DNA from: Escherichia coli
Lineage (GTDB): Bacteria > Pseudomonadota > Gammaproteobacteria > Enterobacterales > Enterobacteriaceae
Length of the DNA stretch: 64,000 nucleotides
Reading direction: 5' to 3' (one strand)
Assembly (NCBI RefSeq): GCF_030013595.1
Contig: NZ_CP122768.1
Below, piece after piece: positions 11,830 to 29,377 of the stretch (within the stretch, counting starts at the first letter, position 1; every line of letters begins with the position of its first letter). Position numbers and translations under genes: made by a program. The notes below the pieces were generated by a model, which was not told the DNA's origin, searched no databases, and saw only the letters and a program-made list of their open reading frames with translations.

Positions 11830-14391
11830 TTACACCAGACTCTTCAAGCGATAAATCCACTCCAGCGCCTGACGCGGAGTCAGTGAATCCGGGTCGAGAT
11901 TTTCCAGTGCTTCGACCGCAGGCGAAGTTTCTTCTGGCACTGACAGCAAAGACATTTGCGTACCATCCACTTGCGTAGCGGCGGCGTTCGGCGAAATGCT
12001 TTCCAGCTCACGCAGTTTTTGCCGTGCGCGCTTAATAACCTCTTTTGGCACGCCGGCCAGAGCTGCAACCGCCAGGCCGTAGCTTTTGCTCGCTGCGCCA
12101 TCCTGCACGCTGTGCATAAAGGCAATGGTGTCGCCGTGCTCCAGTGCATCGAGATGCACGTTGGCGACGCCTTCCATTTTCTCCGGTAACTGGGTCAGCT
12201 CGAAATAGTGGGTAGCAAACAACGTCAACGCTTTAATCTTATTCGCCAGATTTTCCGCGCACGCCCACGCCAGCGACAGACCATCGTAAGTGGACGTTCC
12301 ACGCCCAATCTCATCCATCAGCACCAGACTGTACTCGGTGGCGTTATGTAAAATATTGGCGGTTTCGGTCATTTCCACCATAAAGGTTGAACGCCCGGAT
12401 GCCAGATCATCCGCTGCCCCTACGCGGGTAAAGATGCGATCGATAGGTCCAATCTTGACTTTTTGTGCCGGTACATAGCTGCCGATGTAGGCCATCAGCG
12501 CAATCAGTGCGGTCTGGCGCATATAGGTACTTTTACCGCCCATATTCGGACCGGTAATGATCAACATGCGACGCTGCGGCGACAGGTTCAGCGGGTTGGC
12601 GATAAACGGCTCATTCAGCACCTGTTCAACCACCGGATGGCGGCCTTCGGTGATGCGAATACCCGGTTTATCAATAAAGGTCGGGCAGGTGTAGTTCAGC
12701 GTATAGGCCCGTTCCGCCAGGTTCACCAGCACGTCGAGTTCCGCCAGCGCGCTCGCGCTCTGTTGCAACGCTTCCAGATGCGGCAACAGCAGGTCGAACA
12801 ACTCTTCATAAAGCTGTTTTTCCAGTGCCAGTGCTTTGCCTTTTGAAGTGAGAACTTTGTCTTCGTACTCTTTTAGCTCTGGAATAATGTAGCGCTCGGC
12901 GTTTTTCAGCGTCTGGCGACGCATGTAATTGATGGGTGCCAGATGGCTTTGTCCACGGCTGATCTGAATGTAATAACCATGAACCGCGTTAAAGCCGACT
13001 TTCAGGGTGTCCAGGCCAGTACGTTCACGCTCGCGGACTTCCAGACGCTCCAGATAATCGGTCGCGCCGTCAGCCAGCGCGCGCCACTCATCCAGCTCTT
13101 CGTTATAGCCCGATGCGATAACACCACCGTCGCGTACCAGCACTGGCGGTGTGTCGATGATTGCCCGCTCCAGCAGATCGCGCAGCTCGGCAAACTCGCC
13201 CATTTTTTCACGTAGCGCCTGTACCGGAGCGCTATCGACATTTTCTAACTGCGCACGCAGCTCCGGCAGTTGCTGGAAAGCGTGACGCATACGGGCCAGA
13301 TCGCGTGGGCGAGCAGTTCGTAAAGCCAGACGCGCCAGAATACGTTCCAGGTCGCCGACCTGACGCAGCACCGGCTGTAGCTCGGCGGTGAAATCCTGCA
13401 ATGCGCCAATAGTTTGCTGGCGCTCAAGCAACACGCGGGTATCGCGCACTGGCATATGCAGCCAGCGTTTCAGCATACGACTACCCATCGGCGTTACAGT
13501 GCAGTCGAGCACTGAAGCCAGCGTGTTTTCCGCACCGCCCGCCAGGTTCTGGGTAATTTCCAGGTTACGACGCGTCGCGGCATCCATAATGATGCTGTCC
13601 TGCTCACGTTCCATAGTGATAGAACGAATATGCGGCAGAGTCGTACGTTGGGTATCTTTCGCATACTGCAACAGACAACCGGCAGCACAAAGTCCGCGCG
13701 GCGCGTTCTCGACGCCAAAACCGACCAGATCGCGGGTGCCAAATTGCAGATTCAACTGCTGGCGCGCGGTGTCGATTTCAAACTCCCACAGCGGACGACG
13801 GCGCAGACCGCGACGACCTTCAATCAGCGACATCTCAGCAAAATCTTCTGCATATAGCAGTTCCGCCGGATTAGTGCGTTGCAGTTCTGCCGCCATCGTT
13901 TCCCGGTCAGCCGGTTCGCTCAGGCGAAAACGACCGGAACTGATATCCAGCGTCGCGTAGCCGAAACCTTTACTGTCCTGCCAGATAGCCGCCAGCAGAT
14001 TGTCCTGGCGCTCTTGTAACAGGGCTTCATCGCTGATGGTGCCTGGCGTAACGATACGCACAACTTTGCGCTCAACCGGACCTTTGCTGGTCGCCGGATC
14101 GCCAATTTGTTCGCAGATGGCAACGGACTCTCCCTGATTCACCAGTTTGGCGAGATAGTTTTCCACCGCATGGTAGGGGATCCCCGCCATCGGGATCGGC
14201 TCTCCCGCTGAAGCACCGCGTTTGGTCAGTGAAATATCCAGCAGCTGCGAGGCGCGTTTCGCGTCGTCATAAAACAGTTCGTAAAAGTCACCCATCCGAT
14301 AGAACAGCAGGATCTCGGGATGCTGGGCTTTCAGCTTGAGATACTGCTGCATCATTGGCGTATGGGCATCAAAATTTTCTATTGCACTCAT
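11830..14391 (-). CDS. mutS: DNA mismatch repair protein MutS
   Basis: 853-aa [43 protein letters not shown]... with Walker [10 protein letters not shown]. Confidence 0.97.
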
Positions 14392-14637
14392 GGGGTTATG
14401 TCCGGTTCCCTGATATTAAATGGGGTGTGATGGTTTTTATTTTCGTTGTAATCACATAAGGCGCACATGATACCGGAGTTAATCATTTCAGGGGAAGAAG
14501 CGAACGGCGAGTTCTTGATGGTGATTCCGCGAAAGATGCTGTTTTGCAGCTTTTGCGTGATGCTTATGAAGCAGGTACGCAAAATTGCGTCGGTTGAATA
14601 AACCTCCTCCTTCAGAGCCATAGTCCCCTTTCAAATT

Positions 14638-14660
14638 AAGTTGTAATATAAATACACCTT
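14638..14660 (+). promoter_or_regulatory. Candidate NsrR operator upstream of ygbA (aagttgtaatataaatacacctt)
   Basis: 23-bp imperfect inverted repeat resembling the NsrR 11-1-11 consensus, 18 bp upstream of the ygbA ATG; ygbA is a known NsrR regulon member (from memory). Confidence 0.45.
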
Positions 14661-14677
14661 AAGAGTATGGAGGCAGC

Positions 14678-15022
14678 ATGTCCGGCAAGCGTATCTCTCG
14701 TGAAAAACTGACGATTAAAAAAATGATCGATCTTTATCAAGCGAAATGCCCGCAGGCGTCAGCGGAGCCGGAGCATTACGACGCGCTGTTTGCCTACGCG
14801 CAAAAGCGGCTGGATAAATGTGTGTTCGGCGAAGAGAAACCAGCCTGTAAGCAGTGTCCGGTGCACTGTTACCAGCCTGCAAAGCGTGAAGAGATGAAAC
14901 AGATTATGCGTTGGGCCGGGCCGAGAATGCTGTGGCGTCATCCGATCTTAACCGTGCGTCATCTCATCGATGACAAGCGTCCGGTGCCGGAGTTGCCAGA
15001 AAAATATCGTCCAAAGAAATAA
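14678..15022 (+). CDS. ygbA: Small Cys-containing protein YgbA (nitrosative-stress regulon member)
   Basis: 114-aa ORF MSGKRISREKLTIKKMIDLYQAKCP...; GGAGG Shine-Dalgarno upstream. Confidence 0.88.
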   Translation: MSGKRISREKLTIKKMIDLYQAKCPQASAEPEHYDALFAYAQKRLDKCVFGEEKPACKQCPVHCYQPAKREEMKQIMRWAGPRMLWRHPILTVRHLIDDKRPVPELPEKYRPKK

Positions 15023-15025
15023 ATC

Positions 15026-15050
15026 TGCCGGAGAGCCATACTCTCCGGCA
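15026..15050. terminator. Hairpin between the convergent ygbA and molbindin gene (possible bidirectional terminator)
   Basis: Stem tgccggagag/ctctccggca with 5-nt loop; flanking U-runs are weak. Confidence 0.45.
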
Positions 15051-15060
15051 AATAAGGCGT

Positions 15061-15489
15061 TTACGCTTTGGTGGCAATCAGGATGGCTGATGCTTTGATC
15101 AATGCAATAACGCGCGAGCCAGTGGTGAGTTTCATTTCATCCTGACTTTCATTTGTTACCACTGCCACAATTTCAAAACCCGCATCCGTTTTGATATGGA
15201 CAGTGGCGTTCACTGCGCCTTCGGTGATTGTCGACACGCTGCCAGCAAACTGGTTGCGAGCAGAGAATTTCAGTCCACAGTCTTCCGTTGCCAGCGTGAC
15301 CCACGGGGCTTTAATCAGGGCAATCGCTTCTTTCCCTTTTGCCAGACCCAGAGCCTGCTGGCTGCTGTGAGTCACAATTGCCACCAGCTTTGCACCACCT
15401 GCCAGCGTCAGTTCTACTTCATCATTCACAGCGCCCATTGCTACTGCGCTAACTGTTCCGGTTAATTGATTTCTTGCTGAAACTGCCAT
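15061..15489 (-). CDS. Tandem-TOBE (Mop-like) molybdate/tungstate-binding molbindin, ~142 aa
   Basis: Two internal repeats each starting SARNQ(L/F)xGxV...; start at ATG 15489 preceded by AAGGAGG; lies 44 bp downstream of the fhlA stop on the same strand. Confidence 0.75.
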   Translation of the reverse strand: MAVSARNQLTGTVSAVAMGAVNDEVELTLAGGAKLVAIVTHSSQQALGLAKGKEAIALIKAPWVTLATEDCGLKFSARNQFAGSVSTITEGAVNATVHIKTDAGFEIVAVVTNESQDEMKLTTGSRVIALIKASAILIATKA

Positions 15490-15533
15490 ACTGCCTCCTT
15501 TCATTGAATGTTGATCGAGTATAACCACATCTG

Positions 15534-17612
15534 TTAAATCAATGCCGATTTATCAATTCCCAGCCGCTTCATCCGTGACAGCAGGGTCGTGCGTTTCAGC
15601 CCCAGACGTTGCGCAGCGCCTTTAGGCCCGGCAACCACGCCGTTGGTTTCTTTCAGCACGCGCACAATCAACTGATATTCATCTTCGCCCTCCTGGGCGA
15701 CAACCGTTGCGGCAGGCGGCGTTTCAGGCTCCGGTAAAGCAATATCTGGCAATGACAGCTGCAGCACGTTGCCGCGTGTTAGCAATACTGCGCGCTCAAT
15801 GACGTTTTCCAGTTCGCGTACGTTACCCGGCCACTCCATGTTGCTCAAGGTGCGCAGCGTCTCGGCAGGAATGCTGTCGATATTGCGCCCCAGACGACGG
15901 GCAATTTTGAAGGTAAAGGCTTTCGCCAGCAGCGGAATATCTTCCGGACGCTCGCGTAGTGGCGGCAGGTGAATCGGGAATACGTTCAGGCGGTAATAGA
16001 GATCGCTACGGAACTCTCGGTCGGCGACCATTTTTTTCAGATCGCGGTTAGTTGCGGCAATTAAACGTACGTCCGTCTGAATGATTTTGTTGCTGCCGAG
16101 ACGTTCAAACTCCTGTTCCTGCAATACACGCAGCAACTTCGGCTGTAACTCCAGTGGCATATCGCCCACTTCGTCGAGGAACAGAGAGCTTTTATCCGCC
16201 AGTTCAAAACGACCAATGCGCTGGGCGCTGGCACCGGTAAAAGCCCCACGCTCATGACCAAACAGATCGCTCTCCAGCAATCCGGCAGGCATCGCCGCGC
16301 AGTTCATTTTGACCATGCGGCGATTATTACGCCCACTGAGATTATGGATAGCACGGGCAATCAGCTCTTTACCCGTGCCAGTTTCACCGAGGATCAGCAC
16401 GGTACTGTCACTTTGCGCCACCATTTCAACTTGTTTAAGCACGCTGTACATGGCTTCGCTGCGGCCAATAATCTCGCCAAATTCACTATCAACATTGTTG
16501 AGCTGCTCGGTCAGGGCGAGGTTTTCATCAACCAGCCGTTCTTTCAGACGATGGATTTCCTGATAGGCGAGGGCGTTATCGACAGCGATTGCCACACGTT
16601 CGGCAATCTGGCGCAGTAAATTCAGATTGGTAGTGGTAAAGACTTTCTCTTCGCATTGCGCCAGTTTCAGCACGCCCAGCATGGTGTCGCCAGACATCAG
16701 CGGTAACAGGCACAAGGTTTGAATCTGGTTGCCCCAGGTGTCGAACAACATGCGTTCATAGGGGGCTAAATCGTCCCGCTCGTGGAGATTAATCAACAGC
16801 ATCTCTTTACTTTTGAAGACGCGTTCGGTGAGGGTTCCGGCTTCATCGACTTCGCTCTGTTCGTGGGCGGGATGCTGTTTATCAAGATAGTGAGTGGAGT
16901 AGATGTTGAGTTTGTTTTTACGGTGGCTGCGTAAGACGATGCTGATATCGTCAATGTCGAAGTAGTAATGGATTTCTTTGGCGACTTCGCTGACCAGTTC
17001 GTCCATATCCAGGCGGGAAAGCACCGCGTTGGTAATGGCAACCAGGATGCGGAAGTTATCGCGTTCCCGGCATAACAACTCATAGTCGACATTGTTAACG
17101 ACGCGGCTCTGGATTTGTTCGGTGACGACAGAAACGATCTGCGTAAATGTTTGCAGACGATTGAACTCTTTTTCGCTCCAGGGGCGATCGTCATAACGAA
17201 TAAATTCACAGCCACCAAAAATATGCCCTTCCGCCGCCAGTGGCATCAGGCAATAGTGACCAAATTTGGGGTATAGCCCACCTGCGGCCAGCTGCGGCCA
17301 GGTTTCACAAAATTCTTCGTAACTGCAATGCAGCGTATCAGGGCGCGACAAAATGCTGCGTACCGGACCGTGTGCCAGAACAGTTTCGTCTTCATATTTA
17401 ATGGGGGTGTCTTTTTCACGCGACGCGTAATAAGACGCACGTTGAGTCTGCGCTTGCCACAACACAATAGCCGCGTTGTCGGCGAGCGCAGAACGCTTTA
17501 CCAGTAGCGAAAGAGCCTCACACAGCGAGGCCAGATCGGGCTGCTGCAATAGTGTCCGAGTGATGTCGAACAACCCTTGTTGTCCGAGATCACTCATCGG
17601 TGTATATGACAT
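15534..17612 (-). CDS. fhlA: Formate hydrogenlyase transcriptional activator FhlA (sigma-54 dependent, GAF + AAA+ + HTH)
   Basis: Translation MSYTPMSDLGQQGLFDITRTLLQQ... with GAFTGA sigma-54 interaction motif; the track start at 17648 is a 5' over-extension. Confidence 0.95.
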   Translation of the reverse strand: MSYTPMSDLGQQGLFDITRTLLQQPDLASLCEALSLLVKRSALADNAAIVLWQAQTQRASYYASREKDTPIKYEDETVLAHGPVRSILSRPDTLHCSYEEFCETWPQLAAGGLYPKFGHYCLMPLAAEGHIFGGCEFIRYDDRPWSEKEFNRLQTFTQIVSVVTEQIQSRVVNNVDYELLCRERDNFRILVAITNAVLSRLDMDELVSEVAKEIHYYFDIDDISIVLRSHRKNKLNIYSTHYLDKQHPAHEQSEVDEAGTLTERVFKSKEMLLINLHERDDLAPYERMLFDTWGNQIQTLCLLPLMSGDTMLGVLKLAQCEEKVFTTTNLNLLRQIAERVAIAVDNALAYQEIHRLKERLVDENLALTEQLNNVDSEFGEIIGRSEAMYSVLKQVEMVAQSDSTVLILGETGTGKELIARAIHNLSGRNNRRMVKMNCAAMPAGLLESDLFGHERGAFTGASAQRIGRFELADKSSLFLDEVGDMPLELQPKLLRVLQEQEFERLGSNKIIQTDVRLIAATNRDLKKMVADREFRSDLYYRLNVFPIHLPPLRERPEDIPLLAKAFTFKIARRLGRNIDSIPAETLRTLSNMEWPGNVRELENVIERAVLLTRGNVLQLSLPDIALPEPETPPAATVVAQEGEDEYQLIVRVLKETNGVVAGPKGAAQRLGLKRTTLLSRMKRLGIDKSALI

Positions 17613-17685
17613 TTTGTTCTTCCAGGAAAGCACCGCAAAGCGGTGCAAAAGGTCATTGACTAACTATAGGAGATTTAGAATTTTA

Positions 17686-21976: not shown

Positions 21977-22100
21977 GCTGAGGCTTTGCCCGTTTTGCAG
22001 GCGTTACGCCTGTTTGGGGATGGGCGTGTCGATGAGTGTCGAAAATGACATTTCATCGGCATGTTTTCGTCAAAAATGACAATCACCTGAGGAATGCCTG

Positions 22101-28914: not shown

Positions 28915-29377
28915 CGTTTTACTCTGTGTTGGCAATAGCATGATGGGCGATGATGGCGCAGGCCCGCTACTGGCGGAAAAGTGCGCCGCCGCGCCGAAAG
29001 GTCACTGGGTGGTGATTGACGGCGGTAGTGCACCGGAAAACGACATTGTCGCTATTCGCGAACTGCGCCCGACACGACTGCTGATTGTCGACGCCACGGA
29101 TATGGGGCTAAACCCCGGCGAGATCCGCATCATCGATCCGGATGATATCGCCGAGATGTTTATGATGACTACCCATAACATGCCGTTGAACTACCTTATC
29201 GACCAGTTAAAAGAAGACATTGGCGAAGTGATTTTCCTCGGCATCCAGCCGGATATCGTCGGCTTTTACTACCCGATGACCCAGCCGATTAAAGATGCGG
29301 TAGAAACCGTTTATCAACGACTGGAAGGCTGGGAAGGGAATGGCGGATTCGCGCAGTTAGCGGTGGAAGAAGAGTAG
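28907..29377 (+). CDS. hycI: Hydrogenase 3 maturation endopeptidase HycI
   Basis: 156-aa [23 protein letters not shown]... Confidence 0.93.
   Translation: MTDVLLCVGNSMMGDDGAGPLLAEKCAAAPKGHWVVIDGGSAPENDIVAIRELRPTRLLIVDATDMGLNPGEIRIIDPDDIAEMFMMTTHNMPLNYLIDQLKEDIGEVIFLGIQPDIVGFYYPMTQPIKDAVETVYQRLEGWEGNGGFAQLAVEEE

Follow-up and report, generated by a model that had tools for sequence, protein, structure and literature searches.

The core operators of Escherichia coli ytfE, hmp and hcp share an 11-1-11 dyad, AAGATGCATTT-n-AAATGCATCTT, located near the start of a gene that is repressed by NsrR and induced by nitric oxide (NO). NsrR is an Fe-S repressor of the Rrf2 family that is released from DNA when NO attacks its cluster, as described in published work (PMC9338935; PMC11500311, PMC5411485, PMC4861436). 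The crystal structure of the Streptomyces coelicolor NsrR-hmpA1 complex (PMC9338935) also contains a 23-bp operator, which is covered by a dimer of [4Fe-4S] NsrR with its wings at the operator ends and from which the protein is released by NO. The specificity of the S. coelicolor protein differs, however, in that it does not bind sequences specific for E. coli NsrR (PMC9338935), and PMC10783083 describes the cluster type and structure of enterobacterial NsrR as not determined.

The NsrR site of ygbA is already known; its prediction dates from 2005, and genome-wide NsrR studies have included it since then. In K-12, the core GATGtAaTaTAAATaCATC was predicted at -37 (Rodionov 2005, PMC1274295 supplementary table), and in strain CFT073 the site is given as AAGGTGCATTTATATTACAACTT (Mehta 2015, PMC5320621 Table 4). 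We analyzed a 64,000-nt stretch of E. coli chromosome, hereafter the window, in which a 23-bp element at 14638-14660, AAGTTGTAATATAAATACACCTT, is very likely the operator by which NsrR, a repressor of the Rrf2 family that senses NO, controls ygbA. The published K-12 and CFT073 sites correspond to this element in gene, in distance from the start codon and in 23-bp register. The reverse complement of the CFT073 site, AAGTTGTAATATAAATGCACCTT, has 22 of 23 bases in common with it, the single difference being G in CFT073 and A in the window at site position 17 (14654). The K-12 allele, AAGATGTAATATAAATACATCTT, has 21 of 23 bases in common with the window, with A4 and T20 in place of T4 and C20. On matrix 1 (see below), the ytfE (31.5 bits) and hcp (26.1 bits) operators are both stronger than that of ygbA (21.7 bits), and hmp (22.2 bits) is about equal to it.

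Results

The ygbA locus

Genes in this part of the window are ordered pphB-mutS, ygbA, a TOBE-domain gene, and fhlA-hyp-hyc. The ygbA coding sequence (14678..15022, plus strand) specifies a 114-residue protein, and an identical sequence is annotated ygbA in RefSeq. The protein belongs to the YgbA_NO family (Pfam PF11756, E = 4.2e-41): residues 4-106 align with profile positions 1-104 of 106, a full-length match whose score of 140.1 bits lies well above the Pfam gathering score of 25. To one side of ygbA lies mutS (11830-14391, minus strand), preceded by pphB; to the other are a gene for a 155-residue protein with two TOBE domains (15061-15528, minus strand; Pfam E = 1.3e-34) and then fhlA (15534-17648, minus strand), with hypE-A and subsequently hycA, hycB and onward following. 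A GC-rich, terminator-like hairpin with its T-run on the minus strand (15023..15053) separates ygbA from the TOBE gene, the two genes being convergent. Strain HCP5S3_I2 has a ygbA region with 100% identity to this one, and 5,419 of 5,426 complete E. coli genomes contain the region; within this genome collection, one match that carries the exact operator allele of the window is on a plasmid record, and one genome contains the region in two copies. K-12 is without the two-TOBE-domain gene, and its ygbA is annotated as 117 residues with a different C-terminal end (...KKPHE versus ...KK).

YgbA contains five cysteines, at residues 24, 48, 57, 60 and 64, including the arrangement C48-x8-C57-x2-C60-x3-C64. 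Cysteines spaced in this way are suggestive of a metal or Fe-S site; if true, this would be notable for an NO-induced protein of unassigned function.

The spacer between mutS and ygbA has features of its own. A RefSeq 'hypothetical protein' of 44 residues (WP_165787351.1) is annotated at 14467-14601 (plus strand), ending 37 nt before the operator. A Pfam search with this protein returned no match, a terminator-like hairpin (14538-14550) followed by a T-run lies inside its reading frame, and the frame is probably not a real gene. The spacer (14392-14700) is also unusually diverged within E. coli: the 309-bp query matched 3,903 of 5,420 records at only 90-95% identity, a divergence that could have arisen by recombination around mutS. 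Despite it, comparison of three alleles shows variation in the operator at site positions 4, 17 and 20 alone.

A 23-bp imperfect dyad that matches NsrR matrices

The earlier note on this DNA had described a 23-bp imperfect dyad resembling the 11-1-11 NsrR consensus 18 bp upstream of the ygbA start, and each element of that description is borne out. The exact string is present at 14638-14660, and its last base is 18 bp before the A of the ATG at 14678; the 17 nt between them, AAGAGTATGGAGGCAGC, include the predicted Shine-Dalgarno sequence GGAGG (14669..14673, plus strand) 4 nt before the ATG. GGAG-like runs occupy the Shine-Dalgarno location in most of the orthologous ygbA upstream regions that were printed. 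At 8 of 11 positions, the left half, AAGTTGTAATA, is the same as the right half read as its reverse complement, AAGGTGTATTT. Counted by hand against the textbook consensus, 16 of 22 positions match (left half 7/11, right half 9/11). The resemblance is moderate, and the two halves differ when scored with a half-site matrix. The left half-site (14638..14648, plus strand), which carries most of a predicted -10 hexamer discussed below, is weak, with 7.6 of a possible 16.3 bits, and site positions 9 and 11 contribute negatively to its matrix score. The right half-site (14650..14660, read on the minus strand) is strong, with 14.1 of 16.3 bits, and at columns 15-19 and 21-23 it hardly varies from genus to genus.

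Two NsrR position weight matrices, each constructed without ygbA, were used to scan the window. Matrix 1 was built from 16 distinct ChIP-seq-positive CFT073 23-mers (Mehta 2015, PMC5320621 Table 4) and symmetrised; matrix 2, which is 19 bp wide, was built from 26 distinct Enterobacterales sites (Rodionov 2005, PMC1274295 supplementary table). With matrix 1, the 11-1-11 inverted repeat at 14638-14660 scored 21.7 bits and ranked first of 63,978 positions; the runner-up scored 17.1 bits and the remainder 13.9 bits or less. The exact P value of this score is 2.2e-8 per position, corresponding to 0.0014 expected occurrences per 64 kb, and under a background of 70% A+T (35/15) the expectation becomes 0.07 per 64 kb, which amounts to roughly 5 in a whole genome. 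When the window was shuffled 300 times with its dinucleotides preserved, no shuffle attained 21.7 bits, and the mean maximum was 14.2. With matrix 2, the 19-bp core at 14640-14658 also ranked first in the window, at 17.0 bits versus 11.3 for the next position, a score that is nevertheless below that of every training site (18.7-31.3 bits). The earlier note had named a matrix scan as the check on its reading, with a poor score to count against it; instead, the site ranks first with both ygbA-free matrices. It is thus a real yet middling match to NsrR.

The runner-up with matrix 1, at 22043-22065 (AAATGACATTTCATCGGCATGTT), is the published hycB site. It lies between hycA and hycB, 36 nt ahead of the hycB start (22101), and is identical to the CFT073 hycB site, which is among the strongest ChIP-seq peaks (PMC5320621); it is also a member of the training set, and its score is therefore not independent. 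Other matches to matrix 1, at 29177 (13.9 bits), 6399 (13.6 bits) and 41063 (12.0 bits), are at or below the mean maximum of the shuffled windows and were set aside as chance matches.

Conservation of the site across genera

A scan for the YgbA protein with one genome per species yielded 80 ygbA loci, which represent more than 25 enterobacterial genera, including Escherichia, Citrobacter, Salmonella, Enterobacter, Klebsiella, Raoultella, Kluyvera, Leclercia, Lelliottia, Pluralibacter, Phytobacter, Trabulsiella, Hafnia and Rahnella. In all 80, in genomes where the presence of nsrR was assumed, the top match to matrix 1 over the whole locus (about 3.3 kb) was the orthologous 23-mer upstream of ygbA. 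These sites end 12-22 nt ahead of the ygbA start codon (in Hafnia, 41 nt) and have a median score of 20.1 bits. When the sequences were anchored on the site, information averaged 1.40 bits per column over the 23 site columns, compared with 0.19 over 70 upstream columns and 0.49 over 12 downstream columns. Columns A1, A2, G6, T7, A8, A11, T12, A15, T16, (G17), C18, A19, C21, T22 and T23 are nearly invariant. The 80 loci are related by descent, yet their flanks have diverged past alignment and are saturated with change while the site has been kept. Shared descent alone is therefore insufficient to account for its conservation. The sequence itself, its fit to the matrices, its near-identity to the published site and this conservation at a constant location across Enterobacteriaceae are the points that the present analysis itself demonstrates.

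The invariant AA...TT ends of the site fit with wing contacts at the ends of the operator, as observed in the S. coelicolor complex (PMC9338935).

A predicted promoter overlapping the operator

Part of the conserved pattern points to a promoter element within the site. Among 81 sequences, T7, A8 and T12 are invariant and A11 is present in 80, giving the pattern TAnnAT at site positions 7-12; the hexamer is TAATAT in the window (14644..14649, plus strand) and TATTAT in most other genera, and is predicted to be the ygbA -10 element. At position 11, matrix 1 favors T (0.84); at position 12, the unspecific center of the motif, it has no preference. Column 13, which corresponds to column 11 by symmetry, can be either A or T. 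That A11 and T12 do not vary is thus unexplained by the NsrR motif and appears to be accounted for better by a -10 hexamer lying within the left half-site. At ygbA, the left half departs from ATTT to AATA or ATTA, and it is this departure that forms the TAnnAT hexamer.

A weak -35 hexamer, TAGTCC (14621..14626, plus strand), is predicted 17 bp upstream and matches TTGACA at three of six positions. Averaged over the 81 sequences, the match to TTGACA peaks only at the 17-bp spacing (2.81, versus about 0.8-2.1 at 34 other spacings), and the G of TTG in this region is present in 74 of the 81. TAGTCC-17-TAATAT matches the sigma-70 consensus at 7 of 12 positions, and a consensus sigma-70 promoter scan of 14350-15100 found none with at least 9 of 12 matches. 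Because TAGTCC is a poor -35, the consensus scan calls no promoter here, and because that scan is empty, the -10 and -35 assignments rest on conservation. The predicted transcription start is an A inside the right half-site (14656, plus strand), 7 nt after the -10 hexamer, which is the usual distance from -10 to start; a start near this position would give a leader of about 22 nt. Two other arrangements were considered and rejected: an extended -10 (TGn), since the window lacks TG at site positions 4-5 and these positions are unconserved, and TATAAA at site positions 10-15 as an alternative -10, since columns 13 and 14 are variable and positions 7-12 are preferred.

The earlier note had the operator overlapping the ygbA promoter. 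The support for this overlap is comparative, consisting of TAnnAT inside the site and a -35-like signal at exactly 17-bp spacing; the site ends 18 bp before the ygbA ATG with the predicted -10 inside it, and it is therefore at or near the core promoter of the gene it is proposed to control.

These same observations raise the question of whether the AT-rich stretch is simply the ygbA core promoter, with a -10 region, a fortuitous dyad and no repressor. The invariant TAnnAT embedded in the site would be expected of such a promoter, and AT-rich DNA inflates matrix matches, as reflected in the higher expectation under the 70% A+T background. Conservation exceeds the -10 hexamer, however: A1, A2, G6, the block A15-T16-G17-C18-A19, and C21-T22-T23 are nearly invariant, and the columns downstream of the -10 spell the NsrR half-site AAATGCAnCTT. 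In addition, ygbA is derepressed in nsrR mutants (see below). We regard it as improbable that the element is a promoter and nothing else.

NsrR control of ygbA

The dependence of ygbA on NsrR and NO, in vivo binding of NsrR in K-12, and the cluster chemistry are taken from the literature. Mutation of nsrR derepresses ygbA in E. coli (Bodenmiller & Spiro 2006, cited through PMC5320621 and PMC2884951), and in a Salmonella nsrR mutant the level of ygbA mRNA is raised 31.8-fold (PMC2884951). For CFT073, the authors of PMC5320621 state that ygbA belongs with the genes that NO derived from nitrate induces most strongly; Table 1 of that paper does not list it by name. ygbA is also highly transcribed in the macrophage vacuole (PMC7232297). 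The description of ygbA as a nitrosative-stress gene in the earlier note thus agrees with published NsrR dependence and induction by nitrate and NO. ChIP-chip in K-12 placed NsrR at the ygbA promoter (Partridge 2009, cited through PMC5320621). ChIP-seq in CFT073 gave no NsrR peak at ygbA, which its authors view as a probable false negative (PMC5320621).

This missing CFT073 peak would be accounted for if the dyad were the operator of another regulator, such as a different Rrf2-family member (e.g., IscR) or a nitrate/nitrite regulator, and the effect of NsrR on ygbA were indirect; Rrf2 paralogues do bind dyads of similar length. Set against this are the first rank of the site with two NsrR-specific matrices, the correspondence of its conserved right half to the NsrR consensus AAATGCATCTT, and the K-12 ChIP-chip signal at this promoter. 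On this indirect evidence, an operator for some other protein is an explanation to which we give little credence.

The inverted repeat could instead function in RNA, as a leader hairpin affecting ygbA translation or stability, and the minimum-free-energy fold of 14630-14690 does pair both arms. That fold has an energy of only -7.1 kcal/mol (z = 0.44), and 135 of 200 shuffled sequences fold at least equally well; an Rfam search gave no family match. A start near 14656, as predicted, would leave most of the dyad untranscribed. Moreover, the conserved positions track the protein-binding motif, and the partner columns 11 and 13 lose complementarity, with A11 invariant and column 13 either A or T. 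A function of the repeat in RNA is therefore very improbable. Chance resemblance without function, to which the imperfect 8/11 dyad and a matrix 2 score below the training range might be ascribed, is effectively refuted by the shuffled windows, none of which reached the score, and by retention of the site at the same place in 80 loci with unalignable flanks.

With NsrR as the regulator, a mechanism can be outlined in which a holo-NsrR homodimer carrying its Fe-S clusters would bind both 11-bp half-sites. As the -10 (14644-14649) is predicted to lie in the left half-site and the start (about 14656) in the right, bound NsrR would exclude RNA polymerase. Nitrosylation of the cluster by NO would then take NsrR off the DNA and allow ygbA to be transcribed. 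Because the operator would cover the -10 as well as the probable start, the simplest mechanism is that NsrR occludes the promoter until NO lifts the block, a mechanism that we infer from the predicted -10, -35 and start positions.

Operator alleles in E. coli

The three E. coli alleles were counted by exact 30-mer search in 5,426 complete genomes. The K-12 allele was found in 2,111 of them, that of the window in 1,299 and that of CFT073 in 1,090; with exact 30-mers in 1,299 genomes, the window allele is a common natural variant. Their matrix 1 scores are similar (window 21.7, CFT073 22.4 and K-12 22.6 bits).

The alleles, which differ at site positions 4, 17 and 20, may conceivably bind NsrR with unequal affinity and thereby give each lineage its own NO threshold for ygbA. 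Separately, nesting of the -10 in the left half-site may be a trade-off that weakens that half (7.6 versus 14.1 bits) and tunes the ease of derepression. Both ideas are speculative, and we consider them unlikely, if less so than the alternatives discussed above. In favor of the allele-affinity idea, ChIP found NsrR at the K-12 allele and not at the CFT073 allele, and the CFT073 allele is the nearer of the two to that of the window.

Discussion

Taken together, the first rank of the 23-bp dyad with two ygbA-free NsrR matrices, its near-identity to the sites published for K-12 and CFT073, and its retention upstream of ygbA in every locus compared make NsrR, acting directly at 14638-14660, very probably the repressor of this gene. 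The finding has little import beyond correct annotation. Its additions are modest: a cross-genus footprint of the operator positions under constraint, the argument for a -10 located within the left half-site, and counts of three alleles in 5,426 genomes. If correctly placed, a -10 nested in the left half-site would support repression by promoter occlusion. Because the function of YgbA is unassigned, a well-defined NO-responsive ygbA promoter is mainly useful as a reporter and as an annotation landmark.
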